Shown here piece after piece: positions 7,242 through 64,000 of a stretch of DNA of 64,000 nucleotides; within the stretch, counting starts at the first letter, position 1, and every line of letters starts with the position of its first letter. The stretch is taken from NCBI GenBank assembly GCA_965223545.1, contig OZ245006.1, positions 7,232,001 through 7,296,000 of the forward strand. The letters run 5' to 3'. Position numbers and translations under genes: made by a program. The DNA is from Planctomycetota bacterium. Lineage in GTDB: Bacteria; Planctomycetota; UBA1135; UBA2386. Under the pieces are notes generated by a model. That model was given only the letters and a program-made list of their open reading frames with translations, was not told the origin of the DNA and did not search any database.

Positions 7242-7364
7242 CGGCGGCGCAGATCTTGCGCCAACCACGGCGGCACGGCAACCGCGACTCGCCGCGCCGC
7301 GGCGCAGCGAAAATGATACGCTGCATGCCTTCTCCCCGCGTTCGGGTTGAACGGAGACCTGCTC

Positions 7365-10300
7365 ATGCACCCAAGCCCCCTCTCGTCCGCAACTCTCTTC
7401 GTGTCCGCGCTTGCGCTGGGGCCGTTGGCGGCGCAGTCGCCGGTGCCGCAGCTGACCCTGGACATCAACCAGCGGACGGTCGGCAGCCCACCGAGCTCGA
7501 GTCCGACGGGCTTCGTGCAGATGGGGGCGTTCGTCTACTTCGCCGCGCGCGCCGACAAGGTCGGCAGCGAGCTGTTCCGCACCATCGGGGTGCCGAACAC
7601 GACCACCCTGGTCGCCGACATCGAGCCTGGTACCGGCAACTCGTCGCCCGGCAATCTGCAGGTGCTCCCCGGCGCGCGCTTGGTCTTCGCGGCCTTCCGC
7701 GCCGATATCGGGCGCGAGCTCTGGGTGTCGGATGGCACCGCGGCGAACACGCAGCCGATCGACATTCGCACCGGCACCGGTAGCTCCAATCCGAGTTGGT
7801 TGGCCGTCTCCGGCGTCAACGTGTTCTTTACCGCCGACGACGGTTCCGGCGTCGGCACCGAGCTGTGGATCAGCAACGGCAGTGCGGCCGGCACCCGGCT
7901 GGTTGCCGATATCCGCCCCGGCTCGAGCTCCGCTTCGATCACGCAGATCACGCCGTTCAAGAACGGCGTCCTGTTCTCCGCGACCGACGGCACCACTGGC
8001 ATCGAGCTGTGGTGGTCGGACGGCACCGCGGCGGGCACCACGATGGTGCTCGACATCAACAACGGCGCGGGTTCGGGGTCGCCGGTGCTCGGGCCGGTGC
8101 TCGGCACGGATCTGATTTTTGCCGCGACCGACGGTGTGATCGGCCAGGAGCTGTGGAAGAGCGACGGCACCAGCGCGGGCACGGGACTCGTGCGGGACAT
8201 CAACCCTGGATCGGGAACCTCGACCCCGACGTTCGGAATCGTCTGGAACAACGAGGTGTACTTCTCCGCGGACGACGGAACCAACGGCCGCGAGCCCTGG
8301 AAGACCGACGGCACACAGGCCGGCACCGCGATGATCCGCGACATCGCCGCGACGGCGTCCAGCTCCAATCCGGTCTTCGGCGCAGTCGCGAACAGCACCT
8401 CCGGCAGTCGTGTCTTGTTCAGTGCCACCGATGGCCTCGCCGGCGTGGAGCTGTGGGGGACCGACGGCACCTTGTTCGGCACGACGCTGGTGCAGGACAT
8501 CAACCCGGGGATCGCATCGTCGACTCCGAGCGGGTTCGTCACCGTCGGCTCCAAGGTGGCGTTCATCGCCAACGACGGCACCGTGGGGGCGGAGCTCTGG
8601 CAGAGCGACGGGACGGCTGCCGGCACCGCGTTGGTGTCCGACATTCGTTCCGGCGTGAGTTCGTCGGGTATGCGGGAGTTGACCCCGCACGCTGGACTGG
8701 TCGTGTTCCAGGCCAACGATGGCTTGACCGGCGCCGAGCTCTGGGGTTCGACGCTGAATCCGTCGGGCACGCAGCTGGCGGCCGACCTGCTGACCGGCAC
8801 CACGCAGAACTCGAGTCCCGCGGGCGTCGACTTGTTCGGCCGCACCGTCTTCGCCGCCGATGATGGAGTTCAAGGACGCGAGCTGTGGATCTCCGACGGC
8901 AGCGCCGCCGGTACCCAGCTGATCTCCGACTTGCGCGCAGGAGCGTCGAGCTCCAGTCCAACCGACCTGGTGCGCATGGGGCGGCACGTGTACTTCTCCG
9001 CGGATGTAACGGCGTCCGGTCGGGAGCTGTGGCGCACCGACGGCACCGCGGCGGGAACGTCCTTGGTCGCCGACATCGTGCCGGGCACCGGCTCGTCGGC
9101 GCCGGCCGAGCTCACCGTGTGGGGCGACCTGCTCTACTTCCGGGCCTACACGATCGCCACCGGTACCGAGCTGTGGCAATCGGACGGGACCGCGGCCGGG
9201 ACCGTCCTGGTCAAGGATATCGAGCCGGGTCCGGGCAGCGGTGATCCGCTGAACCTCACCCTCCACGCAGGGGCGCTGTACTTCTCGGCAGTCGACTACA
9301 ACGGCGACGAGCTCTGGATTTCCGACGGCACCGCGGCGGGGACGAAGCTGTTGGCGGATGTTTCGGTTGGCGCGTGGAGCTCGTCCCCCGCCGACCTCGT
9401 CTCGTTCGCGGGCGCGCTCCACTTCACCGCCTCCGATCGGGTGAATGGGCGGGAGCTGTGGCGCTCGGATGGGACCACGGCGGGCACCGTTCTGCTGAGC
9501 GACATCCAGAGCGGACTCGGCAGCAGCAACCCGGGCGCGCTCACCGTTGCCGGCTCGCAGCTCTTCTTCACCGCGAACGATGGCAGCAGGGGTACCGAGC
9601 TCTGGGTGACCAACGGTAGCGGCGCCGGCACGCGCTTGGTCGCCGACCTCGAAGCGGGCGCCAGCGGCTCCTCGCCGACAAACCTGACGGTGTTCGGCGC
9701 TTCCGTGCTGCTCTCGGCACGCACCTCGACCACCGGTACCGAGCTGTGGGTGTCGGATGGAACGGCGGCGGGCACGCGCGTGATCGACGTCGAGCCGGGC
9801 AGTGGCTCGTCGTCACCGAGCCCCGCGTTCGCGACGGGCAGCCGGTTCGCCTATTTCGGCGCGACCACCAGCGGCGAAGGGCAAGAGCTGTGGGTCACCG
9901 ACGGTACGCAAGCCGGGACGCGGCAGGTCGACTCGCTCGCCAGCGGCACCGCGTCGGCGACACCCGGCGACTACTTGCTCGGCGGCGGCTTGCTCTGGTT
10001 CGCCGCCTATGGCGATGGCGTGGGCCGCGAGCTGTGGACGCTCGACGTCGGCGCGAACGTGCAACAAGTCGGGCAGGGCTGCGGCCAGCGCGGTGGCGTT
10101 TTGAGCGCCACCGATCCGGTGCTCGGCCAGCTGATGCAGGTCCGCGGCCGCGACGCGCTGCCGGGAACCACGGGCTTCGTCCTGCTCAGTGGGCCGTTGC
10201 CGGCGATTCCACTGGGCAGCGGCTGCTTCTTCTACCTGCTGCCGCAGGGGTTCGCGAATCTGGGAGCGGTACCGATCACCAGCGGGAGTTGGGCGGTGCC

Positions 10301-10427
10301 GGTGCCGATTCCCAACCTGGCCATCCTCAACGGGTTGACCGTGGCGTTCCAAACGGTGATCGGGCCGACCACGGCGCCGCGCGGGTTCGATCTGAGCAGC
10401 GCCGTGTTCGCGACTCTCGGGCGTTGA
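7365..10427 (+). CDS. Secreted ELWxxDGT-repeat protein with a C-terminal Cys-containing domain
   Basis: About 18 copies of E(L/P)WxxDGT...DI.PG..SS.P; signal peptide ...PLAA-QS; GGAGA RBS before ATG 7365. Confidence 0.9.
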   Translation: MHPSPLSSATLFVSALALGPLAAQSPVPQLTLDINQRTVGSPPSSSPTGFVQMGAFVYFAARADKVGSELFRTIGVPNTTTLVADIEPGTGNSSPGNLQVLPGARLVFAAFRADIGRELWVSDGTAANTQPIDIRTGTGSSNPSWLAVSGVNVFFTADDGSGVGTELWISNGSAAGTRLVADIRPGSSSASITQITPFKNGVLFSATDGTTGIELWWSDGTAAGTTMVLDINNGAGSGSPVLGPVLGTDLIFAATDGVIGQELWKSDGTSAGTGLVRDINPGSGTSTPTFGIVWNNEVYFSADDGTNGREPWKTDGTQAGTAMIRDIAATASSSNPVFGAVANSTSGSRVLFSATDGLAGVELWGTDGTLFGTTLVQDINPGIASSTPSGFVTVGSKVAFIANDGTVGAELWQSDGTAAGTALVSDIRSGVSSSGMRELTPHAGLVVFQANDGLTGAELWGSTLNPSGTQLAADLLTGTTQNSSPAGVDLFGRTVFAADDGVQGRELWISDGSAAGTQLISDLRAGASSSSPTDLVRMGRHVYFSADVTASGRELWRTDGTAAGTSLVADIVPGTGSSAPAELTVWGDLLYFRAYTIATGTELWQSDGTAAGTVLVKDIEPGPGSGDPLNLTLHAGALYFSAVDYNGDELWISDGTAAGTKLLADVSVGAWSSSPADLVSFAGALHFTASDRVNGRELWRSDGTTAGTVLLSDIQSGLGSSNPGALTVAGSQLFFTANDGSRGTELWVTNGSGAGTRLVADLEAGASGSSPTNLTVFGASVLLSARTSTTGTELWVSDGTAAGTRVIDVEPGSGSSSPSPAFATGSRFAYFGATTSGEGQELWVTDGTQAGTRQVDSLASGTASATPGDYLLGGGLLWFAAYGDGVGRELWTLDVGANVQQVGQGCGQRGGVLSATDPVLGQLMQVRGRDALPGTTGFVLLSGPLPAIPLGSGCFFYLLPQGFANLGAVPITSGSWAVPVPIPNLAILNGLTVAFQTVIGPTTAPRGFDLSSAVFATLGR

Positions 10428-19643: not shown

Positions 19644-19685
19644 CCGCACCCTCAAGCGCGGACCACCCCCCTCACCGGCCAGAAC

Positions 19686-19717
19686 GTACGGTGTCAGACT
19701 CGATTTTCTCGCTTCGC
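19686..19717 (+). repeat. REP-like 32-bp element, family A, solo copy
   Basis: GTACGGTGTCAGACTCGATTTTCTCGCTTCGC; four related copies at 26.4, 26.8 and 31.1-31.2 kb. Confidence 0.85.
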
Positions 19718-19728
19718 GCGGCCCAGCG

Positions 19729-21147
19729 CTAACGCGCCCGTCGCCGCACCGAGCCCAACACGGCGGCGAATGGCTCGAGCAGCGCCTCGTCGCGCACCTC
19801 GGCGTCGACCAGCACCCACAAGTCGTCATAGAGCAGGGCCGCGCCCCGGTGGCCGCTACCTGCGTCCCCCGCGGCATAGCGCAGGACCGCGGTGGCCTCC
19901 CACGGGTTGGGATCGGGTTTCGGCTGCCATTGTGGCGCGGCGCGGAGCGGCTGGCCGAGCGCGCGCAGTCGCGCGGCGAGCGAGGCCTCGATCGCCGCCC
20001 GCTCTCCGTCGAGCGTCGCGGCGGTGCGGGAGTAGGCGGTGATTCCGATGGTGCCGGTATCGTCGGGGCACACGTAGCTCACGTGGCAAAGGCCGACGTC
20101 GGCGGCGCCGTAGGCGTGGAACTCGGCCGGGCCGCGGCAGTGCAGGCCGTAGCGCTCGTTGTGATAGGCGCCCTGCCCGCGGACCGCGCCGCCACTGTGC
20201 GCCGCGGCGGCGCGCCGGCCGACTTCGTCCGCTGGAATCTCGGGATCGAGCAGCCGGAAGCTGGCCAGCCACAGCTGGATCTCGGTGGCGCGGCGCCGGT
20301 GGGCGTCGGGGTCACCGTCGACCGTCAGTAGGTAGGCGATCTCCGCCGACGGCGCCGCGCGTTTCCCCGCGGGGTGGGTGATGCAGTAGAGCGTGGTGCG
20401 CTGGCTGGTCCGATCCAGCTGGGCGCTGGCGCCGCGCGCGCCGCCGACCGCCGCGAGCGCCGCGGGCAGCGGCCATGGACGCGGGGGTTGCGCCGGCGTC
20501 TCGTCGTGCAAAAGCTGTTGCAAGAGGGACTGCGCGTCGAGGCTGCCGGGGTTGCGGGCGACGGTGATGCTCAGCCGCAGGTCGTCGTCGAGCGGATAGA
20601 AGGACACCATCTCGGTGCAACCGCTGATCGCGCGCGGGCTGGGCACGACCAGCCAGTCCGAAGTCGGTGACCCGATGGTGTAGTTGCAGGCCGGGCAGCG
20701 GAACGCGCCGGTGAAGCCGTTGGTGATGCCGTCGCGCATCGCCGCATCGACGTCGACGTGCAGCAGCGCCAGCGGAGTGCCCGCGTCGGTGCGGAAGGCG
20801 AGATAGCTGTGCTCACAATGGTCGGCGTCGCCGGTGTCGACCACGGTCTCGGCGAGCGCCACCCCGATCCCGCGGCTTTGGCGGAACTCCTGCACGCTCG
20901 ACACCGCGGCCAGCCGCGCGCCCTGCTCGAGGAGGTGGCGCATGCGAGCATCGCGCGAGCCACCGAACCCGGCGCCGCCGCGTTGCGCGAACAGCGCGTC
21001 GTAGGCGTTGGTCGAGCCCTGCGCCACCGCGGTGTCGAGCGCCGACAGCAGCTCGCCAGCGAGCTCGGCGGTCGGCGTTCGCGCCCCACAACCGAGGAGG
21101 GTGAACAGCGCCGCGCCGGCGACGAGCGTCTCGCACCGCCGACTCAC
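19729..21147 (-). CDS. Hypothetical lipoprotein
   Basis: GTG overlaps the upstream stop; lipobox LLGC; contains CPAC. Confidence 0.65.
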   Translation of the reverse strand: MSRRCETLVAGAALFTLLGCGARTPTAELAGELLSALDTAVAQGSTNAYDALFAQRGGAGFGGSRDARMRHLLEQGARLAAVSSVQEFRQSRGIGVALAETVVDTGDADHCEHSYLAFRTDAGTPLALLHVDVDAAMRDGITNGFTGAFRCPACNYTIGSPTSDWLVVPSPRAISGCTEMVSFYPLDDDLRLSITVARNPGSLDAQSLLQQLLHDETPAQPPRPWPLPAALAAVGGARGASAQLDRTSQRTTLYCITHPAGKRAAPSAEIAYLLTVDGDPDAHRRRATEIQLWLASFRLLDPEIPADEVGRRAAAAHSGGAVRGQGAYHNERYGLHCRGPAEFHAYGAADVGLCHVSYVCPDDTGTIGITAYSRTAATLDGERAAIEASLAARLRALGQPLRAAPQWQPKPDPNPWEATAVLRYAAGDAGSGHRGAALLYDDLWVLVDAEVRDEALLEPFAAVLGSVRRRAR

Positions 21148-26407: not shown

Positions 26408-26416
26408 CCCGTGAAC

Positions 26417-26857
26417 AGTACGGTGTCGCACTCGATTTTCTCGCTTCGCACCGATTGCCCTTCCGCTCCGCGCTCAATCCAAGAGGTAGAGCCCCAAGCG
26501 CCACACGTCTGTGCTCAGCAGCGCGACCATCACGACCGCGCTGGCGATCGGCATGAGGGCGGTGGCAACACGTGTCCCGAGCCCGCGGCACGCGAGGACC
26601 GCCAAAGCCCAAGCGCCACCGAGCGCCATGGCGATCGCCGGACACACCCCGCGCGCCCACGACGGCAGCGCGGTTCCGGCCGCCACCGCATCCCCCTGCG
26701 ATGCGATCGACTCGAGGCCGACGTGTGCGTGCTTGACCGTCGCCCCCGCGAGCCACCAGGCCGTCGGCCACCACAGGACGACACCGATGGCGAATGCGAG
26801 GAGTGCGAGGTAGAGGCGTTCGGAGCGAAGCGAGAAAATCGAGTGCGACACCGTACT
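26417..26857. mobile_element. Inverted-repeat-bounded cassette (family A pair with 375-bp interior)
   Basis: Perfect 33-bp inverted repeats at 26417-26449 and 26825-26857 (AGTACGGTGTCGCACTCGATTTTCTCGCTTCGC). Confidence 0.7.
26474..26851 (-). CDS. Small hypothetical membrane protein (about 3 TM) inside the inverted repeats
   Basis: 125-codon hydrophobic ORF; its GTG start and first 9 codons lie within the repeat. Confidence 0.45.
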   Translation of the reverse strand: MSHSIFSLRSERLYLALLAFAIGVVLWWPTAWWLAGATVKHAHVGLESIASQGDAVAAGTALPSWARGVCPAIAMALGGAWALAVLACRGLGTRVATALMPIASAVVMVALLSTDVWRLGLYLLD

Positions 26858-26861
26858 TTCG

Positions 26862-30366: not shown

Positions 30367-31121
30367 GTGGCGGCGCGCCGGCTGGGCCTGCGGCGCCGCT
30401 GGTCGAGATCTTCGGCTCGATCCAGGGGGAGGGGCGCCACGTCGGCGCCGGCATGGCGTTCGTGCGCGTCGCGCGCTGTCCGGTGCGCTGCACCTATTGC
30501 GACACGCCGCACAGCTACGACGTGGCGGAACACGCCATCGTGCACGGGCGTACCGGTGAAGAACGCGAACCCAACCCGGTGTCGGCGGCGCGCGCGGCAG
30601 CGCTGGTCGAACAGCTCGGCGCGCCGTGGTCGGGCTGCGTCTCGGTCACCGGTGGCGAGCCGCTGCTCTACCCGGAGTTCGTCGCCGCCCTGGCAGCCGC
30701 GGTGGCGCCGGCCACCGTCCACTTGGAGACCGCGGCCCTGCACCCCGACGCGCTGCGCGCCTGCATCGGCGGCCTGCACCACGTCAGTGCCGACTACAAG
30801 CTGCCGGGCACCCTCGAACGCGGCGACTACGCCGCGCGCCACGTCGAGTGCGTGCGGATCGCGGCCGAGTCGGGTTGCGCGGTCGACGTCAAGATGGTGA
30901 TCACCTCCGCGGTGACCGACGCCGCGGTCGACGCCGCGCTCGACCGCCTGTCCCCGTTCCGCAGACAAGTCCTGCTGGTGTTCCAGCCGGTGACCCCGTT
31001 CGGCGCCGAGACCGCCACCGTTCCGACCGCACGCCTGCTCGCCCTGGCCGAGCGCGCTGCCGCGCGAGGGTTGAGCCCCCGCGTCCTGCCCCAGGTCCAC
31101 CGCACCCTTGGCTGCAACTGA
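30363..31121 (+). CDS. queE: 7-carboxy-7-deazaguanine synthase (radical SAM)
   Basis: EIFGSIQGEG, FVR..CPVRCTYCDT, TGGEPLL and PQVH motifs. Confidence 0.88.
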   Translation: MSGGAPAGPAAPLVEIFGSIQGEGRHVGAGMAFVRVARCPVRCTYCDTPHSYDVAEHAIVHGRTGEEREPNPVSAARAAALVEQLGAPWSGCVSVTGGEPLLYPEFVAALAAAVAPATVHLETAALHPDALRACIGGLHHVSADYKLPGTLERGDYAARHVECVRIAAESGCAVDVKMVITSAVTDAAVDAALDRLSPFRRQVLLVFQPVTPFGAETATVPTARLLALAERAAARGLSPRVLPQVHRTLGCN

Positions 31122-31207
31122 ACGTACGGAGTCCGGCTCGATTTTCTCGCTTCGCGCACGGCGCAGCCGTGCGCGAAGCGAGAAAATCGAGCCGGACTCC
31201 GTACGTT
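31121..31207. repeat. Perfect 42-bp hairpin made of two family A elements (REPIN-like doublet)
   Basis: Arms 31121-31162 and 31166-31207 are exact reverse complements around a GCA loop; begins at the queE stop. Confidence 0.95.
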
Positions 31208-31221
31208 TCGCGAGGACGCTC

Positions 31222-38624: not shown

Positions 38625-38726
38625 GGTTCGCCGCACGCCTCGAGCGTTGCCGTGGGATGAAGTTTGTTGGCCGGTTTCGCAGGCGCCTTGCGCACCCATG
38701 AGCAGAACCGTCTACGGCACGCCATC

Positions 38727-38969
38727 ATGACCGCAGCCCACGAACCCTCGACTCCAGATCGGGTCTACGACGCCGGCGACACCCTCTGTGGCGAGCTCGC
38801 GCTGACGCTGCGCTCCGAGCTGCGGGCGATGGCCCCGGGCGCAGTGCTCGAGGTGATCGCCAGGGATTCCGCTGCTCGACAGGATCTTCCCGCGTGGTGC
38901 GAGATCACGGGCCACACCCTGATGCGCGCGGACCACCCACACTACTGGATTCGGCGCAAAGCCGACTGA
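38727..38969 (+). CDS. TusA/SirA-family sulfur carrier
   Basis: YDAGDTLCGE...GAVLEVIARD....DLPAWC..TGH. Confidence 0.82.
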   Translation: MTAAHEPSTPDRVYDAGDTLCGELALTLRSELRAMAPGAVLEVIARDSAARQDLPAWCEITGHTLMRADHPHYWIRRKAD

Positions 38970-38984
38970 CCCACCCAAAGGCCG

Positions 38985-39344
38985 ATGAGCAAGTTCGTTG
39001 TCTCTCTCTCGCGCGGCAAGGAAGACCCGGACCGGGCCACCGTCGCCTTCACCTTGGCGAACGCCGCTGTCGGCTGCGAACAGGAGACCGTGGTGTTCCT
39101 CAGCAGCGAGGGTGTGCGGCTGGCGATCGAGGGCTACGCCGATGACGTGGCCGAGACCGGCTTCACGCCGCTTGCGGAGCTGATGCGCAAGTTCGTCGAG
39201 GGCGGTGGCCAGCTCTACACGTGCTTGCCGTGCTTCAACAAGCGCGGTCTCGACGAGAACGCCGTCGTGCCGGGCACGGTGATCGTCGGCGGCGCCAAGC
39301 TGGTTGCGTTCATGGCCAGCGGCGCGCCGAGCGTGAGCTACTGA
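38985..39344 (+). CDS. DsrE/DsrF-family protein
   Basis: VFLSSEGV and YTCLPC..RGL motifs. Confidence 0.85.
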   Translation: MSKFVVSLSRGKEDPDRATVAFTLANAAVGCEQETVVFLSSEGVRLAIEGYADDVAETGFTPLAELMRKFVEGGGQLYTCLPCFNKRGLDENAVVPGTVIVGGAKLVAFMASGAPSVSY

Positions 39345-39523
39345 GCGTCCGGGGCCGCAAATCTTCGCGCGGCGACAACCTTTCGGAAGGCTCGATGCCG
39401 CTGGCACTTCGACAACGCAGCTCCCGGAGGCTCGAAGACAACACCGGCGTCTGCGCTCAGCGCGGCCGCCCGGGACCGCTGGAATCGCAGGCTCCGCTAC
39501 TCTCGCGGCGCGCTCGGCCTTTG
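39341..39523 (+). repeat. Family B dispersed repeat copy, interrupted by IS110 (continues at 41462-41473)
   Basis: 39341-39379 matches the reverse complement of 50486-50524 at 36/39; 39455-39523 matches the reverse complement of 55337-55405 at 48/69 without gaps. Confidence 0.7.
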
Positions 39524-39586
39524 ATATCTCCTAAGTCATGTCAAGGGGTTTTCGCTGGGGCTCGACATCGCGTGTGCACGGCTTGT

Positions 39587-41089
39587 TCAGGACTCTTCCA
39601 CAAGACCAGGGAAGTGTTCTTGCATGAGATCACCGATCGGGTGAGGTTGACGTGGGGATTCCACGGCCAGGCCTGTGGCGTCCATTGGGCGGCCACTCAA
39701 GTCCCTCGTCGTCGGAGTCCCCACTCGTCCCTGTCGCCGTTGGTCGCGCTCATGCCGCTGTGGCGCGACGATGCTGCGCGTGAACTTGGCTGCGATGAGC
39801 GCGCGCGCGGCAACCTTCGTGAGCTCGTTGCCGTCGGCGTCTCGCAGGACGTAGCGGACTTGCGTCGACGCCGGCTTGTCATCGGCGCGCTGGCTGTCGC
39901 GACGCTTCAGGAGGGCGTAGACGCGGCGCGCCATCTTGCCAGCCAATGCGATGAGGATGAGGTTGTGGTGATCACCTGCGGCGTAGCGGCGAGCGTAGTA
40001 CGCCGCGAAATCCGGATCCCACTGGCGAGCGACGTCAGCTGCTAGGTAGAGGTACTTCTTGAGTACTCGTTGGCCGGTTTTGGTGATTGGCATCGAGGGG
40101 TCGCTCATGCCCGTCTGCTTCCGGCGTGGACACAGTCCGCAGTAGCTCACGAACTTCTTGCCGTTCGAGAACCGCGCGATGTCGCCTACCAAGGCTTCGA
40201 TGGCCGCAGCGATCGTGGGACCGACGCCGCGCAGTTGCTCGAGTGTTCGGTCAGGATCGACGCCCAGGTAGAGCTTCTTGATCTTTGCGTCGAGCTTGCG
40301 AACGTCCGTGTTCTTGCGCTCGATCTCATCCAGCTCGTACACCACATCCTCTTGGATGGCCTCGTAGTCGAACGGCATCTGCCCCGCAGCTCGCAGCTCA
40401 GCGTAGTACTCGGCGGCCTGTCGGCAGGACTCGAGCACGCGGTCGACCAAGCACGGGTCATGCGTTCCCTTGGATCGCTTCGTCAAGAAGCGCTCCAAGC
40501 GACTCTTCCCAAGGCCGACCGCTTTCACCGGATCGACGTAGCGCCGCAGAAACCCCATCTTAGCGGCACTGAACTTCTCTGCCCCCAAGGCCTTCATGAG
40601 GCTGGGATTCGCCAGTACCAGTATCGCGTGCACACGACGCTTGTGGTCGCTGAGCTCGCGCGCCAACCGCTCACGCCGCTTCACGAGTCGACGGATCGTC
40701 GTCTCGTCGGCAGTTGGAACACGCAGCTGGTGGACGCCCTTTGGATCCATCTGCGGCAGACGCGCAGCGGCCTCGGCGTCTACTACGTCGGTTTTGGTGT
40801 GCTTGCTATAGAACTTCCGCAGGTCGCTCAGCTTCTGTGGTTTGCTCACGTAGATCTGGAACCCTGCGGCGTTCACGTGCGCCGCGATGGGCAGCCACGC
40901 CAACCCCGTTGGTTCCATCACGAAGCTCACCGGACCCTCGGCACCTTCCTGTGCACGGCGCAGCAGAAGGTCAATACCCTCACGGCTGTTCTCGACTGAA
41001 AACGGTCTGCCCCGAGACTTCGCACCATCCAGAACGACGGCTCGGTGCTTGCTCCTCAAGCCGAGATCCAATCCAACGAATCGATTCAT
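39587..41089 (-). CDS. IS110-family DEDD recombinase/transposase, 500 aa
   Basis: VGLDLG, MEPTG and KTDVVDA (DEDD); LRGVGP..A, SYCGLCP..KQTG, ITKTG and IALAGKMAR motifs; GGAGG RBS. Confidence 0.95.
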   Translation of the reverse strand: MNRFVGLDLGLRSKHRAVVLDGAKSRGRPFSVENSREGIDLLLRRAQEGAEGPVSFVMEPTGLAWLPIAAHVNAAGFQIYVSKPQKLSDLRKFYSKHTKTDVVDAEAAARLPQMDPKGVHQLRVPTADETTIRRLVKRRERLARELSDHKRRVHAILVLANPSLMKALGAEKFSAAKMGFLRRYVDPVKAVGLGKSRLERFLTKRSKGTHDPCLVDRVLESCRQAAEYYAELRAAGQMPFDYEAIQEDVVYELDEIERKNTDVRKLDAKIKKLYLGVDPDRTLEQLRGVGPTIAAAIEALVGDIARFSNGKKFVSYCGLCPRRKQTGMSDPSMPITKTGQRVLKKYLYLAADVARQWDPDFAAYYARRYAAGDHHNLILIALAGKMARRVYALLKRRDSQRADDKPASTQVRYVLRDADGNELTKVAARALIAAKFTRSIVAPQRHERDQRRQGRVGTPTTRDLSGRPMDATGLAVESPRQPHPIGDLMQEHFPGLVEES

Positions 41090-41164
41090 GTCCCCTCCAT
41101 GTTCAACGAGTGAGTGTCGACGAGAGGACTCTCCCTACCCGCGCAGTCCGCCTGAGGAGGCGAG

Positions 41165-41430
41165 TCGCCAAAACGGTTCGTGTTTCGGGGCCGTGATTTC
41201 TCACGCCGCCAATCTCCTAAATCGGGTCCCCCACGCGGGAGGAGAGTCGCAGAACCAAATGAGGGGCCGCTCGAAGCGCCACCATTGCGGCAGATCGCGA
41301 AACCTCTCCGTCGCACGCCGGGGGACCCTAAGCTCTCTTGCGGCCGATGACCAGACTCCCGACACGACTCCTGCGGCTGCACCATCGCGCGAGTCTTCCA
41401 CACCGCTACGGCGCGACGGGTGTGGAGAAC
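41165..41430 (-). ncRNA. Putative bridge RNA in the IS110 left non-coding end (limits approximate)
   Basis: Nested stems GGGTCCCC/GGGGACCC and GGAGAG/CTCTCC enclose a loop with guides matching the target. A second loop around a CGTGA-GAAA-TCACG hairpin has guides matching the donor ends. Confidence 0.75.
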
Positions 41431-41471
41431 TCTAGCTTCGCAGATCATGGAACCACACATACCGTTGCGGC

Positions 41472-42959
41472 CTACAGGATCGGCAGCAGCACCGGCGCGG
41501 GGCGGATGTCGCCCTCGTCGTCGGCGGTCGCCGGTGAGGCCGCGTAAGTCGGTCGGTTCTGGTCGTCGACGAGGACGCCGCTGGCGTTGCGATAGCCACG
41601 CCAGGCGAGGTAGCGCGTCTTGGTCACGCCGTTGGCCAAGGCACCGCCGGGCAGCACGATGTCGATGCTGTCGTCGAGGATCGTGTTGGTGCCGTCTTGG
41701 TTGGTGCCGGGGCGCGCCATCAGCTGGACGACACCCATGCCGCCGAAGCCGCCGGTGGGGTTCCGGTCCCACATGGACGCGGAACTCGGTGGGGGGTACT
41801 TGCCGTCGATCGCCAGGCCGGAGAACAAACCCTGCGTGCTGATGCCGCCGTCGGCGGACACCGCGAAGCTGTAGTCGGCCAACGCGTAGGTCTCGCCGTG
41901 GGCGTGCAGGACGATTCGACCCAGCGAGTAGAGCACGACCATTCCACCGGCGCCGCCGCCGCCGCCCGCTCCCTGGTTGTTGCTGCCGGCCTGCTCGCCG
42001 CCGCCGCCGTTGCCGCCGTTGGCGGAGATGATCCCCTGTGGCCCGACCTCGATCTTGCCCGCGGCGAGGATCACCAGCGCGCCGCCGCCGCCACCGCCGC
42101 CGCCGCCCTTGTTGTTGCTGATCCAGTTGCCGATCGGCCCGCAGAACGTGCTGCGGTCGCCGCCGCCACCTCCGCCGGCACCGCCGATCGGAGCGGCCAA
42201 CTCGCCGGGAATCACGCGGCCCTGCGCGACGTCGTAGCCCGTGCCGAAGAAGTTGTTGTCCGGATCGCTGTCGGTGAAGCCGACCGGCCCCGCCGCGCCG
42301 CCGGGCAGAAACCGCTGGCTGCTGCCACTGAAGCCCATGCAGCCGTAGCCCCCCTGGCCGAGCACTTGCACGAACGAGGTGCCGTTGGCCTTGACCGGAT
42401 ACCAGGGGTCGCCCTGCGTGGCGAAGGCGCCGCCACCGCCGCCCGAGCCGCGGCCACAGTCGCTCGTGCACGACAGCCAGCCGCCGGCACCACCGAGGTT
42501 GGCGGCGCTGCCGGGCCCGAAGCCGTACTGCCCCCGCAAGCTGGGGCCAGTCACGCTCGGGCTGCCCAGGCCGCCGTTGCCGCCACCGCAGTTGCCGACT
42601 CCGCCGGCGGTGGGAAAGTTGGCCGACTGCAGCGTGTTGACGCGGTCGCCGTCACTGCCGTCGACGCGCAGGGCGCCGTTGACGACGAAGTCACCGGTGA
42701 CGATCCACACCATCGGCCGGCTGCCGGTGCCGCGCACCGTCGTGCCGGCGGGGATGGTGACGTTGCGGAAGATGAACACGCCTCCGCTGACCCCGCGCGG
42801 CGGCTTGCCCACCGGCTGGATCTGGGTGAAGTCCGTGTCGAGGATGACCTCGGCCGCCGTCGGCATGTAGTCGCACTGCGGTTGGGCGGAAACCGCGGTC
42901 GCCAGGCCGGCCGCGCACAGGGGAGCCGCAGCCAGGCCGCGGAGGAGGGTGGTTTGCAT
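41472..42959 (-). CDS. Secreted glycine-rich hypothetical protein
   Basis: Signal peptide ...AVSA-QP; multiple GGGGG tracts; 495 aa. Confidence 0.75.
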   Translation of the reverse strand: MQTTLLRGLAAAPLCAAGLATAVSAQPQCDYMPTAAEVILDTDFTQIQPVGKPPRGVSGGVFIFRNVTIPAGTTVRGTGSRPMVWIVTGDFVVNGALRVDGSDGDRVNTLQSANFPTAGGVGNCGGGNGGLGSPSVTGPSLRGQYGFGPGSAANLGGAGGWLSCTSDCGRGSGGGGGAFATQGDPWYPVKANGTSFVQVLGQGGYGCMGFSGSSQRFLPGGAAGPVGFTDSDPDNNFFGTGYDVAQGRVIPGELAAPIGGAGGGGGGDRSTFCGPIGNWISNNKGGGGGGGGGALVILAAGKIEVGPQGIISANGGNGGGGEQAGSNNQGAGGGGGAGGMVVLYSLGRIVLHAHGETYALADYSFAVSADGGISTQGLFSGLAIDGKYPPPSSASMWDRNPTGGFGGMGVVQLMARPGTNQDGTNTILDDSIDIVLPGGALANGVTKTRYLAWRGYRNASGVLVDDQNRPTYAASPATADDEGDIRPAPVLLPIL

Positions 42960-50295: not shown

Positions 50296-50449
50296 CAGCT
50301 CCGAAGAGCGCGAGCGATCCCGTCCGCAACCCCGGCCGCTCGGAGACGTCCAACCGCCCCCGCGACCGCCGCCACAGCTTGGTCCGCGTCTCCGTCACCA
50401 TCGGCGTTGGTCCGGCCCTAGGGACGACCTGCCCCCCGCCGATCGCAAG

Positions 50450-50524
50450 TGTCGAAGTCCTGACGACAACCGGCCTTTCGGAAGTGTTGTCGCCGCACGA
50501 AGATTCTCGGCCCCGGACGCTCAG
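50450..50524 (-). repeat. Family B repeat, partial copy starting at the ECF stop codon
   Basis: CTGAGCGTCCGGGGCCG..ATCTTCG.GCGGCGACAAC...ACTTCGACA is shared with 39341-39414; internal hairpin GGCGACAAC/GTTGTCGTC. Confidence 0.75.
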
Positions 50525-55196: not shown

Positions 55197-55527
55197 GAGC
55201 CTGCCGCACGGGAGGACGAACCATGCACGCGTCTTTCGCACGAGCTCGCCCCGCCAAAACCCCAAAGAACCCACCGAGACACCTACGCGTTCGCGGCCCG
55301 GCCAAGCGCGAAGCTCAGCGCGGCCGAGGCCGCAACCAAACTCGGAGCAATCCGCGACCCGAGCGTCGGTCGCGGGTCCCGCGGTCGCCGGCCGCCGCGC
55401 TGAGCCCGGAGGCACTGTCTGTCCGAGCTTCCGGCGCCGCGGCGCCGTTGCCATGGCGGCGGCGTCGCCTCAAAAATGTCATCGGCGCTCACGTACTTGG
55501 TCGGTCCGCCTCCCGCGAGACAGGCTC
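55197..55527. mobile_element. MITE-like non-autonomous element (family B, full copy, 331 bp)
   Basis: TIRs GAGCCTGCCGCACGGGAGG and GAGCCTGTCTCGCGGGAGG (16/19), CTAG on both sides (55193-55196, 55528-55531), inner perfect 12-bp IR at 55313-55324 and 55394-55405. Confidence 0.75.
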
Positions 55528-55531
55528 CTAG

Positions 55532-57520
55532 CCCAACTTCCGCAGCTCGACGATTTTTGAGGCCAATTCGGAGCCTCGGCGCGGCGCCAGCCCGCTATCC
55601 ACCGTCGCGGCGGCGCAGATCGGCCGTGTAGTGCCAACCCGCCCCGTTGATCGGTGTGGCAGGGAGCACGACAACTGTGTGCGAGGCGGCGGACGTGTAC
55701 CTGCGACGCAAGACGGTCAGAAAGAACGGCAAGACCCACGAGTACTGGCTCCTCGTTCGGTCGGTGCGGCACGGTCGTCGAGTGCGGCAGGAGGTGATCG
55801 CGCAGCTGGGCAAACTGGATGCGAAGGGGCGACGCCGGGCTCGTGCGCTGGCAGATCGGATGACCGGTCGCCGAATGCACCCGAGCCTGTTTGAGCCACC
55901 GGTGACAGACGACGACCCGGTCGAGTCGATTCGCTTGAAGGAGGTCAGCCTCGACCGGACACGCCGCTTCGGCGACGTTTTCGTCGGCCTGGCGCTGTGG
56001 CACGCACTGAAGTTCGACGACGCACTCTGGGAGCTCATGCCGCGGGGCCGTGAAGATGTCCCGTGGTCGACGATGGCGGCAGCGATGGTCATCTGTCGGT
56101 TGTGCATGCCCTCCAGCGAGCTGCACCTGGCTGAAGTCCTGTACCGCCAGACCGCGCTTGACGACCTGCTTGGCCTGCCGGAAGGCAAGGTCAACGACGA
56201 CCGGCTCTACCGGGCTCTCGACCAGATCCTGCCGCACAAAGAGGCGCTGGAGCAGCATCTCCGCGCACGGCTCGGCGAGTTGTTCGACGTTCAGTACGAC
56301 TTGCTGCTCTACGACGTGACCTCGACCTACTTCGAAGGCCTCATGCTGGGCAACCCCCAGGCGCAGCGTGGCTACAGCCGAGATCACCGGCCTGACTGCA
56401 AACAGGTTTGCATCGCTCTGGTCGTGACCAGACAGGGAATCCCTCTTGCGCACGAAGTGTTCGACGGCAATCGGACTGACGTCACGACGGTCCGCGAGAT
56501 CGTCGAGACGATGGAGCGGCGATTCGGTGCTGCTGATCGCATCTGGGTCATGGACCGCGGAATGGTGAGCAAGCGCAACCTGAAATGGTTGAAGGAGGGA
56601 AGGCGACGGTACGTCATCGGCGCATCGCGTTCGGACCTGCGCCGCTTCGAACAGGAGATCGTCGACCGTCGAGACTGGCGCAGCATTCGTGAGGATGTCG
56701 AGGTCAAGCTCTGCCCGAGCGAGGACGGGGAGGAGACGTTCATCCTGTGTCGCTCCCAGGCGCGCATCGAGAAGGACGCCGCAATTGTCGCGCGAGCAGC
56801 CGAACGCATTCGCGCGAGGCTTGCGTCGCTCGAACGCCGACTGGCGGCGTCGAAGAAGTCGATCGAACGGGACCGCGTCAATCAACAGATCGGACGCATC
56901 TTGGCCCAGAACTCGCGGGCCTCCACGTGCTTCTCGGTTTCGTTGATCGAAGCCCCGGATCGACCATCGGGGCTTGCCGTGGAGGCTTGTGAGAACACGA
57001 ACTGGGTGGACCAGAGCGCCGGGTGCTACCTGCTCAGGTCCAACGTGACGGGTTGGACAGATGAGGAGCTTTGGCGGACGTACATCCAGCTCACTGATGC
57101 TGAGTCCGCGTTTCGGATCCAGAAGTCCGAGCTGTCGATCCGCCCGGTGTGGCATCAACGCGAGGACCGGGTCAGGGCGCACATCCTCGTCTGCTTCCTC
57201 GCCTACGCCTTGTGGAAAACGCTCGAGCTCTGGCAGGAGAAGGCCGGACTCGGCAACAGCCCGGCCGCCATCCTCGAGGAGCTCCGTCAGGTCCAAAGCG
57301 CAGACGTGCTCCTGCCAACTACTGACGGCCGCGAACTCCGGGTCCGCTGCGTGGTCACCCCCAACGAGGCGCAGGCGCACCTGCTCGACCGGCTCGGCAT
57401 CCAGCTACCCAGGAGGCTATCCGTCCCCGCGCCACTCCGTTCGACCGCGATGTAGTGCCAACCAATCGACGTAAGTCGTTGCTTTTCAACGTGACGACCC
57501 GTCGAACTGCGGAAGTTGGG
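55532..57520 (+). mobile_element. IS1634-family insertion sequence, 1989 bp
   Basis: 21-bp TIR CCCAACTTCCGCAG(C/T)TCGACG (20/21) at 55532-55552 and 57500-57520; CTAG on both sides. Confidence 0.9.
55695..57455 (+). CDS. IS1634-family DDE transposase
   Basis: LYDVTSTYFEG, RGYSRDHRPD, VMDRGM and Y..L..AESAFR..K..L.IRPVWH...RVRAHI.VCFLAY motifs. Confidence 0.93.
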   Translation: MYLRRKTVRKNGKTHEYWLLVRSVRHGRRVRQEVIAQLGKLDAKGRRRARALADRMTGRRMHPSLFEPPVTDDDPVESIRLKEVSLDRTRRFGDVFVGLALWHALKFDDALWELMPRGREDVPWSTMAAAMVICRLCMPSSELHLAEVLYRQTALDDLLGLPEGKVNDDRLYRALDQILPHKEALEQHLRARLGELFDVQYDLLLYDVTSTYFEGLMLGNPQAQRGYSRDHRPDCKQVCIALVVTRQGIPLAHEVFDGNRTDVTTVREIVETMERRFGAADRIWVMDRGMVSKRNLKWLKEGRRRYVIGASRSDLRRFEQEIVDRRDWRSIREDVEVKLCPSEDGEETFILCRSQARIEKDAAIVARAAERIRARLASLERRLAASKKSIERDRVNQQIGRILAQNSRASTCFSVSLIEAPDRPSGLAVEACENTNWVDQSAGCYLLRSNVTGWTDEELWRTYIQLTDAESAFRIQKSELSIRPVWHQREDRVRAHILVCFLAYALWKTLELWQEKAGLGNSPAAILEELRQVQSADVLLPTTDGRELRVRCVVTPNEAQAHLLDRLGIQLPRRLSVPAPLRSTAM

Positions 57521-61249: not shown

Positions 61250-64000
61250 ATGCGCAAGTCGATCGCCCTGGCCGTTTTTGGTGCCGCATGTACGGCGCCG
61301 CTCGCCGCACAGTTCCCCACCCTGATCAAGGACATCAACGCGACCGTGCGGACTTCGACGGATCCCAGCTCCAACCCGCGCGGCTTCGCGCGGGCGGGCG
61401 GACCGCTGGTGTTCGCGGCGCAGACGTCGAGCGTCGGCGTCGAGCTGTTCTTCACGGCTGGCGCACCCGGCACGACGCTGCTGGTCCGAGACATCTTCCC
61501 CGGTGTGTCGAGCTCCAACCCCCGGCAGATCACGCCCGTCGGCAACCGGGCGTTCTTCATCGCCAACGACGGCGTCGCCGGCGATGAGCTGTGGGTCACC
61601 GACGGCACCGCATCGGGCACGCGGCTGGTCGTCGATCTGGTGCCGGGGCTGCAGAGCTCGGGGCCGGCGGAGCTGACCGAGATGGGCGGAGTGCTCTACT
61701 TCGTCGCGTCGGACGCGCTCAGTGGCCGTGAGCTGTGGCGTTCGGACGGCACCGCCGCGGGCACCGTGCGGGTCGCGGACCTACGGCCGGGCCCGTTGAG
61801 CGCGCTGCCGGCATCGCTCGAGGCGGTCGGCAACCAGCTCTACTTCCGCGCCAACGACGGTGCCACCGGCGCGGAGCTGTGGGTCACGAACGGCACGGCG
61901 GCCAGCACGCGGCTCGTGGCGGACATCGTCGCGGGTGTGCAGGGCTCATCTCCTGCGGGGCTGACCGCTGTCGGCACCGAGGTCTACTTCCGCGCTGATG
62001 ACGGGCAGAACGGCGTCGAGCTTTGGCGCAGCAACGGCACCTCGGCCGGCACCCGGCTCGTGCGCGACGTGATGCCCGGCGCGGGTGGCTCTTCGCCGTC
62101 GTCCTTCACCGAGCAGGGCGGCGTGCTCTACTTCACCGCGAACGACGGCACAAACGGCGCCGAGCTCTGGCGTTCCGACGGCTCGTTCGGCGGTACGTTC
62201 ATGCTGCGCGACATCCGAGTCGGCAGCGGCGGCTCGTCTCCCGGCGAGCTGACGCCCCTGCAGAACTCGGTGTTGTTCTCAGCCGACGACGGCGTGTCGG
62301 GCATCGAGCTCTGGATCACCGACGGCACGCAGAACGGCACCCTGTTGGTGCGCGACATCAACGTCGGCAGCGTGTCGTCCAACCCCGCGGCGCTGTTCGT
62401 GTCGGGTACGACCGCGTACTTCCGGGCCACCGACGGCACCGGCGGGGTCGAGCTCTGGCGGACCAATGGCACCACGGCGAGCACGGCGCAGATGGTCGAC
62501 ATCAATCCGGGCTCCAGCAGTTCGACCCCGGGTGAGTTCACCACTGTGAGCGGTAATCGCTTCGTGTTCTCCGCCAACAATGGTCGGGTCGGCAGCGAGC
62601 TGTGGACCAGCGACGGCACCGTCGCCGGCACCGTACTGCTCGAGAACATCAACCGCGGAGCAGCGCCGACGACCTTGTCGTCGAACGCGGGCGGAATGAT
62701 CGATTTCCTCGGGTTCACCGTGTTCACCGCCAACGACGGGATCGCGGGCGATGAGGTCTGGGTGAGCGATGGCACGGCGGCCGGGACGCGGCTGTTGGCC
62801 GACATCCAGGTCGGCGCGGGTGGTTCGGGGCCGGGTGAGTACACCCTGGTCGGCAACCGCGTCTACTTCGCCGCCGACGACGGCGTCGCCGGCGACGAGC
62901 TTTGGGTGACCGACGGCACCGGCCCTGGCACTCGGCTGGTGGCCGACGTCGCGGTCGGCGCATCGAGTTCGGCGCCGATCGAGTTGGTCGGCATCGAGGA
63001 CCGCCTGTTCTTCAGCGCGGTCGATACGATCAGCGGGCGGGAGCTTTGGGTGTCCGACGGCACGTCCGGCGGCACCACCCTGGTGCGCGACATCAACCCC
63101 GGCATTGCCAGCTCGACTCCGTCGCAGCTCGTCGACGTCAACGGAACGCTCTTGTTCTCGGCGAACAACGGCACCAGCGGCACCGAACTGTGGCGGAGCA
63201 ACGGTTCGCCGGCAGGCACCTTCCTGTTGGCGGACATCGCCGCAGGGGCGTCCAGCTCGAGTCCGCAGAACATGACCGTGGTCGACAACCGCGCGTTCTT
63301 CAGCGCGACCGACGGCAGCGTCGGACGCGAGCTCTACGTCTCCGACGGCACGGTGGCCGGCACGCAGCTGGTGGCCGATATCGTCACCGGCTCGGGCTCC
63401 TCCAACCCCTCGCAGCTGGCGGCCGTCGGCGGATCGCTGTTCTTTGCGGTGGACGATGGCAGCGTCGGCAACGAGCTGTGGATCTCCGATGGCACGGCGT
63501 CGGGCACTTCTTTGGTGCGCGACATCAATCCGGGCCTGGGCTCGTCGTCCAACCCGGCGGAGATCGTCGACAGCTTCGGCATCGCGGTGTTTGCGGCCGA
63601 TGACGGCACCAACGGCCGCGAGCTGTGGGCCAGCGACGGGACCGCTGCCGGCACCTCGATGATCGCCGACATCAACAGCTCGGCGTCCAGCACGAGCTCC
63701 AACCCCAACGCGCTGACCGCGGTCGGCGAGCGCTTCGTCTACTTCTACGCCGATGAGGGCCTCGGCTCCGGCGGCGAGCCGTTCGTCTCGGACGGCACCG
63801 CGTCGGGGACGTTCCAGCTCTCCGATCTGCGGCCGGGCAGCTCGTCGTCGTTCTGCGCCAATGGCACCAGCACGCCGGCCCAACCGACGCACTTCGTGCT
63901 CTCGGGCGGCCAGGTGCAGTTCTTCGCCGACGACGGCACGGTCGGCTGCGAGCCGTGGGTGACCAACACCGGCGCTTCGAGCCAAGCGGTCGGCGACCCG
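61250..64000 (+). CDS. Second secreted ELWxxDGT-repeat protein, truncated by the window end
   Basis: ATG 61250 MRKSIALAVFGAACTAPLAA-QF, then open-frame ELWxxDGT repeats to the window end; absent from the ORF track because it has no stop. Confidence 0.9.
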   Translation, partial: MRKSIALAVFGAACTAPLAAQFPTLIKDINATVRTSTDPSSNPRGFARAGGPLVFAAQTSSVGVELFFTAGAPGTTLLVRDIFPGVSSSNPRQITPVGNRAFFIANDGVAGDELWVTDGTASGTRLVVDLVPGLQSSGPAELTEMGGVLYFVASDALSGRELWRSDGTAAGTVRVADLRPGPLSALPASLEAVGNQLYFRANDGATGAELWVTNGTAASTRLVADIVAGVQGSSPAGLTAVGTEVYFRADDGQNGVELWRSNGTSAGTRLVRDVMPGAGGSSPSSFTEQGGVLYFTANDGTNGAELWRSDGSFGGTFMLRDIRVGSGGSSPGELTPLQNSVLFSADDGVSGIELWITDGTQNGTLLVRDINVGSVSSNPAALFVSGTTAYFRATDGTGGVELWRTNGTTASTAQMVDINPGSSSSTPGEFTTVSGNRFVFSANNGRVGSELWTSDGTVAGTVLLENINRGAAPTTLSSNAGGMIDFLGFTVFTANDGIAGDEVWVSDGTAAGTRLLADIQVGAGGSGPGEYTLVGNRVYFAADDGVAGDELWVTDGTGPGTRLVADVAVGASSSAPIELVGIEDRLFFSAVDTISGRELWVSDGTSGGTTLVRDINPGIASSTPSQLVDVNGTLLFSANNGTSGTELWRSNGSPAGTFLLADIAAGASSSSPQNMTVVDNRAFFSATDGSVGRELYVSDGTVAGTQLVADIVTGSGSSNPSQLAAVGGSLFFAVDDGSVGNELWISDGTASGTSLVRDINPGLGSSSNPAEIVDSFGIAVFAADDGTNGRELWASDGTAAGTSMIADINSSASSTSSNPNALTAVGERFVYFYADEGLGSGGEPFVSDGTASGTFQLSDLRPGSSSSFCANGTSTPAQPTHFVLSGGQVQFFADDGTVGCEPWVTNTGASSQAVGDP

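Follow-up and report, generated by a model that had tools for sequence, protein, structure and literature searches.

An IS110-group element targets a fixed base of a REP/BIME-like repeat with unequal cores, with probable footprints of its loss, in a Planctomycetota chromosome

The window analysed here, a 64,000-nucleotide stretch of the chromosome (C1) of a Planctomycetota bacterium (genome G000; contig OZ245006.1, positions 7,232,001 to 7,296,000), carries on its reverse strand a 1940-bp insertion sequence (IS) of the IS110 type (39524..41463, -), which runs from GGTATG at its left end to GGAGATAT at its right end and is present as 11 identical copies in the genome. Its recombinase gene (39587..41089, -; 500 aa) leaves 374 nt upstream and 63 nt downstream, the non-coding layout of the IS110 group; by inspection only, no inverted repeats were found at the element's ends. 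A TTGACA -35 box near the right end (39539..39544, -; with a weak -10) may act as a circle-junction promoter. The element interrupts a unit of a dispersed repeat: the left half of the target, GCCGCAAC (41464..41471, -), lies directly past the stop codon of the upstream gene, while the right part of the unit (CAAA, linker, arm and long linker; 39341..39523, -) overlaps with its end the TGA stop of a dsrE-like gene. The upstream gene's stop codon is intact, the target half starts right after it (41464-41474), and a paralogue ends at the same place. An uninterrupted copy of the repeat at 55313..55478 (+) contains an intact empty target, GCCGCAACCAAA (55329-55340), and a third, partial copy (50449..50523, +) consists of the end of the long linker only, without the target. 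A DDE_Tnp_1 transposase (55647-57455, +) lies just downstream of the 55-kb copy.

Homology to the repeat extends across the insertion point. The flank at 39455-39523 aligned without gaps to the reverse complement of 55337-55405 with 48 of 69 bases identical, a score that none of 300 dinucleotide shuffles reached window-wide (maximum 44, mean 38.8), and 41464-41473 matched 55336-55327 exactly; excising 39524-41463, ATACC included, produced a single ungapped alignment (58/79) with 14 identical bases spanning the junction. These results bear out the initial annotation in its flank homology, its exact ten-base match past the element and its observation that the 55-kb copy lacks GGTAT. That annotation had however taken ATACC as five extra bases outside the element, whereas they are the element's own first five bases; misplaced ends are a frequent annotation error in the IS110 family (Siddiquee et al., PMC11187229). 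In all 11 copies the left junction was GCCGCAAC/GGTATG and the right junction GGAGATAT/CAAA (the slash marks the joint), with differing outer flanks, and the insertion site common to them is GCCGCAAC/CAAA, so that ends and insertion register are read directly. No target duplication is present, because the insert cannot slide to the left or right; this lack is itself known for the family (PMC11187229).

The repeat family comprised 165 loci (34.6 kb, 0.43% of the chromosome) in a BLAST search with three unit types. Its unit of ~200 bp consists of a palindromic arm, the target, a variable linker, an inverted arm and a long linker, is often tandem and occurs in three linker subtypes. The terminal ends of the repeat fell on a coding-like TGA stop in 54 of 99 cases, versus 5% of control TGAG sites (scored without a gene caller), or in 68 of 99 versus 27% by open-frame length, and the stops so overlapped belong to convergent genes. 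Being multicopy, with inverted arms, and extragenic next to gene ends, the family resembles repetitive extragenic palindromic (REP) sequences and bacterial interspersed mosaic elements (BIME). A cognate REP-associated tyrosine transposase (RAYT) flanked by the repeat was not found: among 14 Y1_Tnp matches, the nearest repeat was 521 bp from one and more than 4.7 kb from the other 13. The repeat is unlinked to twelve Y1 (HUH) transposase-like genes that are nearly identical and scattered over the genome (e.g., C1:6129822). In 40 relatives the repeat was not found, except for one 28-bp match.

The empty site GCCGCAACCAAA occurred 95 times, always within this family (Markov expectation 0.9-2.7), and 72 of the 165 loci had an exact empty site. 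Ten of the 11 right junctions were in the family. Moreover, 148 units without an IS were scored as 90 exact, 56 variant and two with GGTAT inserted (+GGTAT), and the insertions in the repeat were distributed as ten at exact-match sites versus none at the 56 variant sites (Fisher p=0.014). This absence of insertions from variant sites is the defensible version of the 'immune copies' proposed initially. On the side of the linkers, the subtype CAAA-GG-CCGAG (39506-39523; C1:5593693, 8011739) was filled in 3/3 copies and empty in none, and a G followed CAAA in 4 of 11 filled versus 4 of 95 empty sites (p=0.004, post hoc).

The recombinase has the two domains of the bridge recombinases IS621 and ISCro4 (PMC11208160, PMC11208158, PMC13626964; PDB 8wt6, 9t56). 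The DEDD domain (PF01548, E 2e-24; NF033542, 208.7 bits against a cut-off of 140) retains D8, E59, D101 and D104, and in the C-terminal Tnp domain (PF02371, E 4e-21) the segment GLCPRRKQT326G fits the G--P----S(t)G motif and aligns to the ESG of IS621, placing QT326G at S241. ISCro4 and IS621 were also the best structural matches by Foldseek (E 7e-13). On the other hand, identity to them is only ~21%, and the protein is longer (500 aa versus ~330), with a longer middle region and a C-terminal extension; residues ~400-455, past the Tnp domain, are conserved, confidently modelled and absent from IS621. The catalytic position was Thr in 40, Ser in 53 and other or unparsed in 10 of 103 homologues. 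We dropped Thr at this position as a new feature, TG being a described variant of the SG motif of IS110 (PMC11187229). No close transposase homologue was found in 40 relatives or in 400 genomes of the phylum (three candidates scored in each), and plasmids yielded only ~30% matches.

The left non-coding end contains a predicted bridge RNA core with target- and donor-binding loops (41146..41330, -; ends approximate). The left target guide, GCCGCAAU (41284..41291, -), matches the target GCCGCAAC with a G-U wobble at the final position, and the right target guide, UUUGGUU (41253..41259, -), pairs with AACCAAA of the empty site at 7/7 positions. The left donor guide, UUAGGAGAU (41212..41220, -), is identical to the right end of the element, while the right donor guide, ACCGUU (41172..41177, -), pairs with the target core plus the left end (AAC-GGT) as they would stand after strand exchange; in this element the donor guides match the ends. 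An RNAalifold consensus left both target guides unpaired within one internal loop. Folding single sequences gave no advantage over shuffles (z -0.07 and -0.98), and an Rfam search yielded only a chance match (E 0.65).

Covariation between guides and targets was directly observed among homologues. Of 64 metagenome loci, the 11 closest near-full-length ones were read together with one genome locus (L017), and ten (L026-L034, L036) were used; L025, with no left end at the distance where one was expected, and L017, whose RNA could not be fitted to the anchor, were excluded. GGTAT was found 338-378 nt upstream of the gene in 10/10 homologues whatever the target (L030 has a second candidate at 405 nt). 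The left guide matched the eight bases before GGTAT at 77 of 88 positions, our own element included and the better of two offsets taken, and none of 200000 permutations was as good (1/5040 with the seven distinct targets). Similarly, the right guide matched the five bases past the right end at 37 of 45 positions in the nine elements with a right end (12 of 362880 permutations; 1/120 with five distinct targets). Furthermore, the right donor guide tracked the target core, with GU accompanying AC and AU accompanying AT, a post-exchange pairing known from IS621 (PMC11208158). As in bridge-RNA recombinases, both guides of the target-binding loop thus change together with the target. The element is, and behaves as, an IS110-group bridge-RNA element. 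L030, L032 and L033, from other communities, had near-same targets (GCCGCAAC/CAAA, GCCGCAAC/CGAA and GCCGGAAC/CAAA) in flanks unlike the repeat of this genome, which suggests that the target motif is common to unrelated repeat families.

Since GGTAT is constant in the homologues while the guides change with the flanking target, GGTAT, judged by these alignments, is the element's own left end and not a target core. Two parts of the initial interpretation consequently fare differently: the guide does appear to be directed at a multicopy intergenic element, as ten of the 11 copies sit in the repeat family and at the same base, but GGTAT is not the centre of its target, and insertions are not restricted to GGTAT-carrying copies. 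The claim that copies without GGTAT are immune is in fact reversed. Because GGTAT starts all ten close homologues and the right target guide pairs fully with the site lacking it, the GGTAT-less copies are the true targets, with GCCGCAACCAAA occurring 95 times and the initially proposed 17-mer twice.

The core dinucleotides at target and donor are unequal, AC in the target and AT in the donor, which sets this element apart from the identical cores of the IS621 type. At core position 2, moreover, T is almost invariant in IS621 relatives, but the target here has C. Because the two cores differ, no duplication is made. In 11/11 copies the left junction retained AC, the core of the target, and the right junction AT, the core of the donor, i.e., the top-strand junction pattern; swapped junctions numbered 0/11, whereas equal retention of the bottom strand would give half (0.5^11 if the events are independent and the stagger is like that of IS621). 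The same junction pattern with unequal cores (AC or GC versus AT) was seen in L026, L029, L030, L032 and L033, while L028, L031 and L034 had AT in both. The pattern fits integration led by the top strand, although strand-biased repair would look alike. It also agrees with the top-strand copy-out/paste-in described for CazIS110-1 (10.1101/2025.10.25.684509), which predicts junctions dictated by the top strand.

These observations suggest the following course of events, in which RNA expression, circle formation and top-strand exchange are carried over from work on IS621 and CazIS110. An RNA from the left end of the element would pair with the 12-mer GCCGCAA-C-CAAA, which in this genome is nearly confined to the REP/BIME-like repeat; the element would be copied out as a circle (...GAGAT-AT/GGTA...); and the RNA would align circle and target for the recombinase to join them just 3' of the two-base core. 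Junctions 3' of a two-base core, a predicted left-end bridge RNA with left and right target guides, a REP-type target, and a putative pairing between the donor loop and the core of the incoming target, of the kind that promotes insertion, are features in common with IS621 and ISCro4. The clade is a natural test of top-strand-only integration, and the top-strand pattern in 11/11 natural insertions of the present element, with its unequal cores, bears on the debate between double-stranded and top-strand-led integration. The clade also supplies guides reprogrammed in nature, a core that tolerates C, and Thr in the catalytic position.

The 17-mer of the GCCGCAAC + GGTAT + CAAA type was found at C1:611325 and C1:537464, in repeat units of different subtypes, and GGTAT was the sole insert of 1-20 nt at the target site. 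Both +GGTAT copies have linker variants found otherwise only in empty sisters, the tandem neighbour of C1:611325 among them, and GGTAT is therefore the derived state. The insert equals the residue of a deletion between the TAT of the left end and the TAT of the right end. The two copies are probably footprints left when an element was lost through joining of its ends at their common TAT. Such loss could proceed via host microhomology repair or via recombinase cutting at a nearby pseudo-core. The footprint breaks the right half of the target, and the GGTAT-bearing copies are predicted to resist re-insertion. Gene conversion from a filled paralogue was rejected as their origin, as the linkers match empty sisters and not any filled copy.

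A second IS110 element (e.g., C1:517062-518720; 460 aa, AG core, target GGAGCCAGGCTCC) inserts in another palindromic repeat and is present in 23 copies, 22 of them with both junctions intact. It has 85 empty sites, and in addition three exact footprints of its last five bases and one variant made via a different overlap. Duplications of 15-16 bp flank some of its copies, and in one tandem arrangement the right end is joined to DNA that is not the target. An 80%-identical homologue of this element in G469, the genome of a relative from another genus (750 contigs), targets a related repeat, and the four right-junction matches there were two true ends and two remnants, of 11 and 14 nt. A search for the footprint pattern in viral contigs yielded 16 matches, which we took as chance, since by eye none was in a repeat or IS context. 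We regard the footprints as quite likely real, host microhomology joining being somewhat ahead of recombinase slippage as their source. More generally, and with the balance only slightly in favour, bridge-RNA elements may not always leave cleanly, a join between their two ends at a 2-3 base overlap leaving a piece of 5-14 bases that destroys the guide match and makes the repeat copy resistant. If so, footprints amount to a fossil record of IS110 loss that can be counted, here for two unrelated elements of one genome and, in a second genome, for a homologue; they point to loss that is now and then imprecise and spoils the target, a matter of consequence for claims of scarless editing and for limits on IS copy number.

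How the ends are joined has two candidate answers. Cutting by the recombinase at a core-like dinucleotide five bases inside one end, in place of host repair, is possible but the less probable. The retained piece in both G000 elements is indeed 5 nt ending in the element's core dinucleotide (AT and AG, respectively), and ISPpu9 with mutated ends recombines at other AG dinucleotides close by (10.1101/2025.01.17.633520); by inspection, however, the shifted register suits neither left guide, the remnants in G469 measure 11 and 14 nt rather than 5, and IS110 excision mostly fails to rejoin the flanks (10.64898/2026.08.31.748434; 10.1101/2025.10.25.684509; PMC11187229). Both half-match excision of IS621 (10.64898/2026.08.31.748434) and the CazIS110-1 work predict such poor rejoining, but these are laboratory results on other elements and the consulted parts of both texts do not mention end remnants; excision is described as scarless in the IS621 and ISCro4 papers, unlike the remnants seen here. 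Our search found no literature on IS110 end footprints or scars, although most subscription journals and bioRxiv supplements were outside it and prior reports may exist.

It is unlikely that the +GGTAT and +GTCAG copies are artefacts of assembly or polishing, from the merging of filled and empty alleles at a 3-base overlap, with targeting as described. All five of these G000 footprints lie exactly at 3-base overlaps of the element's junctions, where a consensus graph could fuse paths. Yet remnants of other lengths are present in the separate G469 assembly, and the variant footprint (C1:2680892) uses a different 2-base overlap and deletes target bases.

Taken as a whole, the explanation very probably correct is a bridge-RNA IS110 that targets the 12-mer of the repeat by guide/target match and leaves occasional footprints. 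Several observations weigh against it: i) at the eleventh insertion (C1:5137705) the 12-mer is identical but lies beyond the repeat as defined by BLAST, and the left palindrome arm is missing from the interrupted unit in the window; ii) the donor loop did not come out as an internal loop in the RNAalifold consensus, and in L029, L032 and L034, three of the nine elements with a right end, the left donor guide differs from that end at the A/C/G position; iii) contigs from four runs aligned to 38700-42300 contained no circle joint and no skip at the IS ends, though contigs cannot show absence; iv) the footprint sites are known from the assembly and not from raw reads; v) a third IS110-family element in the same repeat had no footprint among 53 empty sites; vi) G469 has remnants but no match to the excision-enhancer-like protein discussed below (its assembly is 90% complete). 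Both IS junctions of the window site were covered by contigs of run X6, from another study. A reading-frame test at C1:5137705 was uninformative, hence set aside, as the site looks intergenic.

The off-repeat and armless insertions also bear on whether recognition needs the repeat hairpin in addition to the guide match, as for ISPpu10 (10.64898/2026.03.19.712850). The target lies just inside a 12-bp palindromic arm (fold z=-2.3), but two of the 11 insertions (the window copy and C1:5137705) are without an intact left arm, and as every one of the 95 empty exact 12-mers belongs to the repeat in any case, sequence alone explains the pattern; a hairpin requirement is therefore improbable. Least credible by far is the initial model of a true target GCCGCAAYGGTATCAAA with a TAT core and insertion only into rare GGTAT-bearing copies: the 17-mer does exist twice, both in the repeat, the RNA past the left guide reads GGU and adds three matched bases, and TAT is in both ends, but GGTAT begins 10/10 close homologues, whose targets differ, the GG that follows the guide is the conserved inner stem, the flanks of the distant homologue L020 join by eye into an apparently intact ABC-ATPase frame without extra bases, and GGTAT would have to arise at 13 sites, spread over three repeat subtypes plus one place off the repeat, and 11 of these would then have been filled, with 95 sisters lacking it.

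IS110 targeting of REP-like repeats at a fixed base has long been established: all copies of ISPpu9, ISPpu10, ISPa11 and ISRm19 were reported in REP sequences (PMC1525189), and what is added here are the unequal cores and the footprints. Those elements are alike in using a fixed base of a multicopy palindromic intergenic repeat that hosts more than one IS family; the repeat here is a different, lineage-restricted one, with no sign of a hairpin need. The third IS110-family element (C1:614549, 5087093 and 6849686, intact; 7064730, broken) inserts at TCTTCGAG/CCTCC of the same repeat, carries its non-coding region on the downstream side, has short inverted repeats at its ends (by inspection IS1111-like), and at C1:6.85 Mb shares one repeat unit with the 1940-bp element.

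The IS-excision enhancer (IEE) is a described source of subtle scars, IS being lost at short microhomologies (10.1101/2023.06.07.543989); the portion of that paper available names IS110 once, solely as a circle-forming family. G000 encodes an 851-aa protein of IEE architecture, an archaeo-eukaryotic primase-polymerase (AEP) of the AEP-TOTE type fused to a DEAD/ResIII helicase (C1:1806795-1809350; PF22548 E 3e-97, PF04851 E 1e-23) and likened to IEE by its domains, as well as two Ku genes. Within the order, 10 of 151 genomes have AEP-TOTE, one of them being G000. As a required cause of the footprints the IEE-like protein is unsupported, G469 having remnants without detected AEP-TOTE. The gene adjoins an AbiEii-domain gene and lies between two IS66 transposases.

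Elsewhere in the window, another dispersed palindromic repeat family occupies 19682-19737, 26410-26860 and 31121-31212 (with a 42-bp perfect hairpin at 31121-31207), and two long genes of 144-bp coding repeats are located at 7347-10427 and ~61500-64000.

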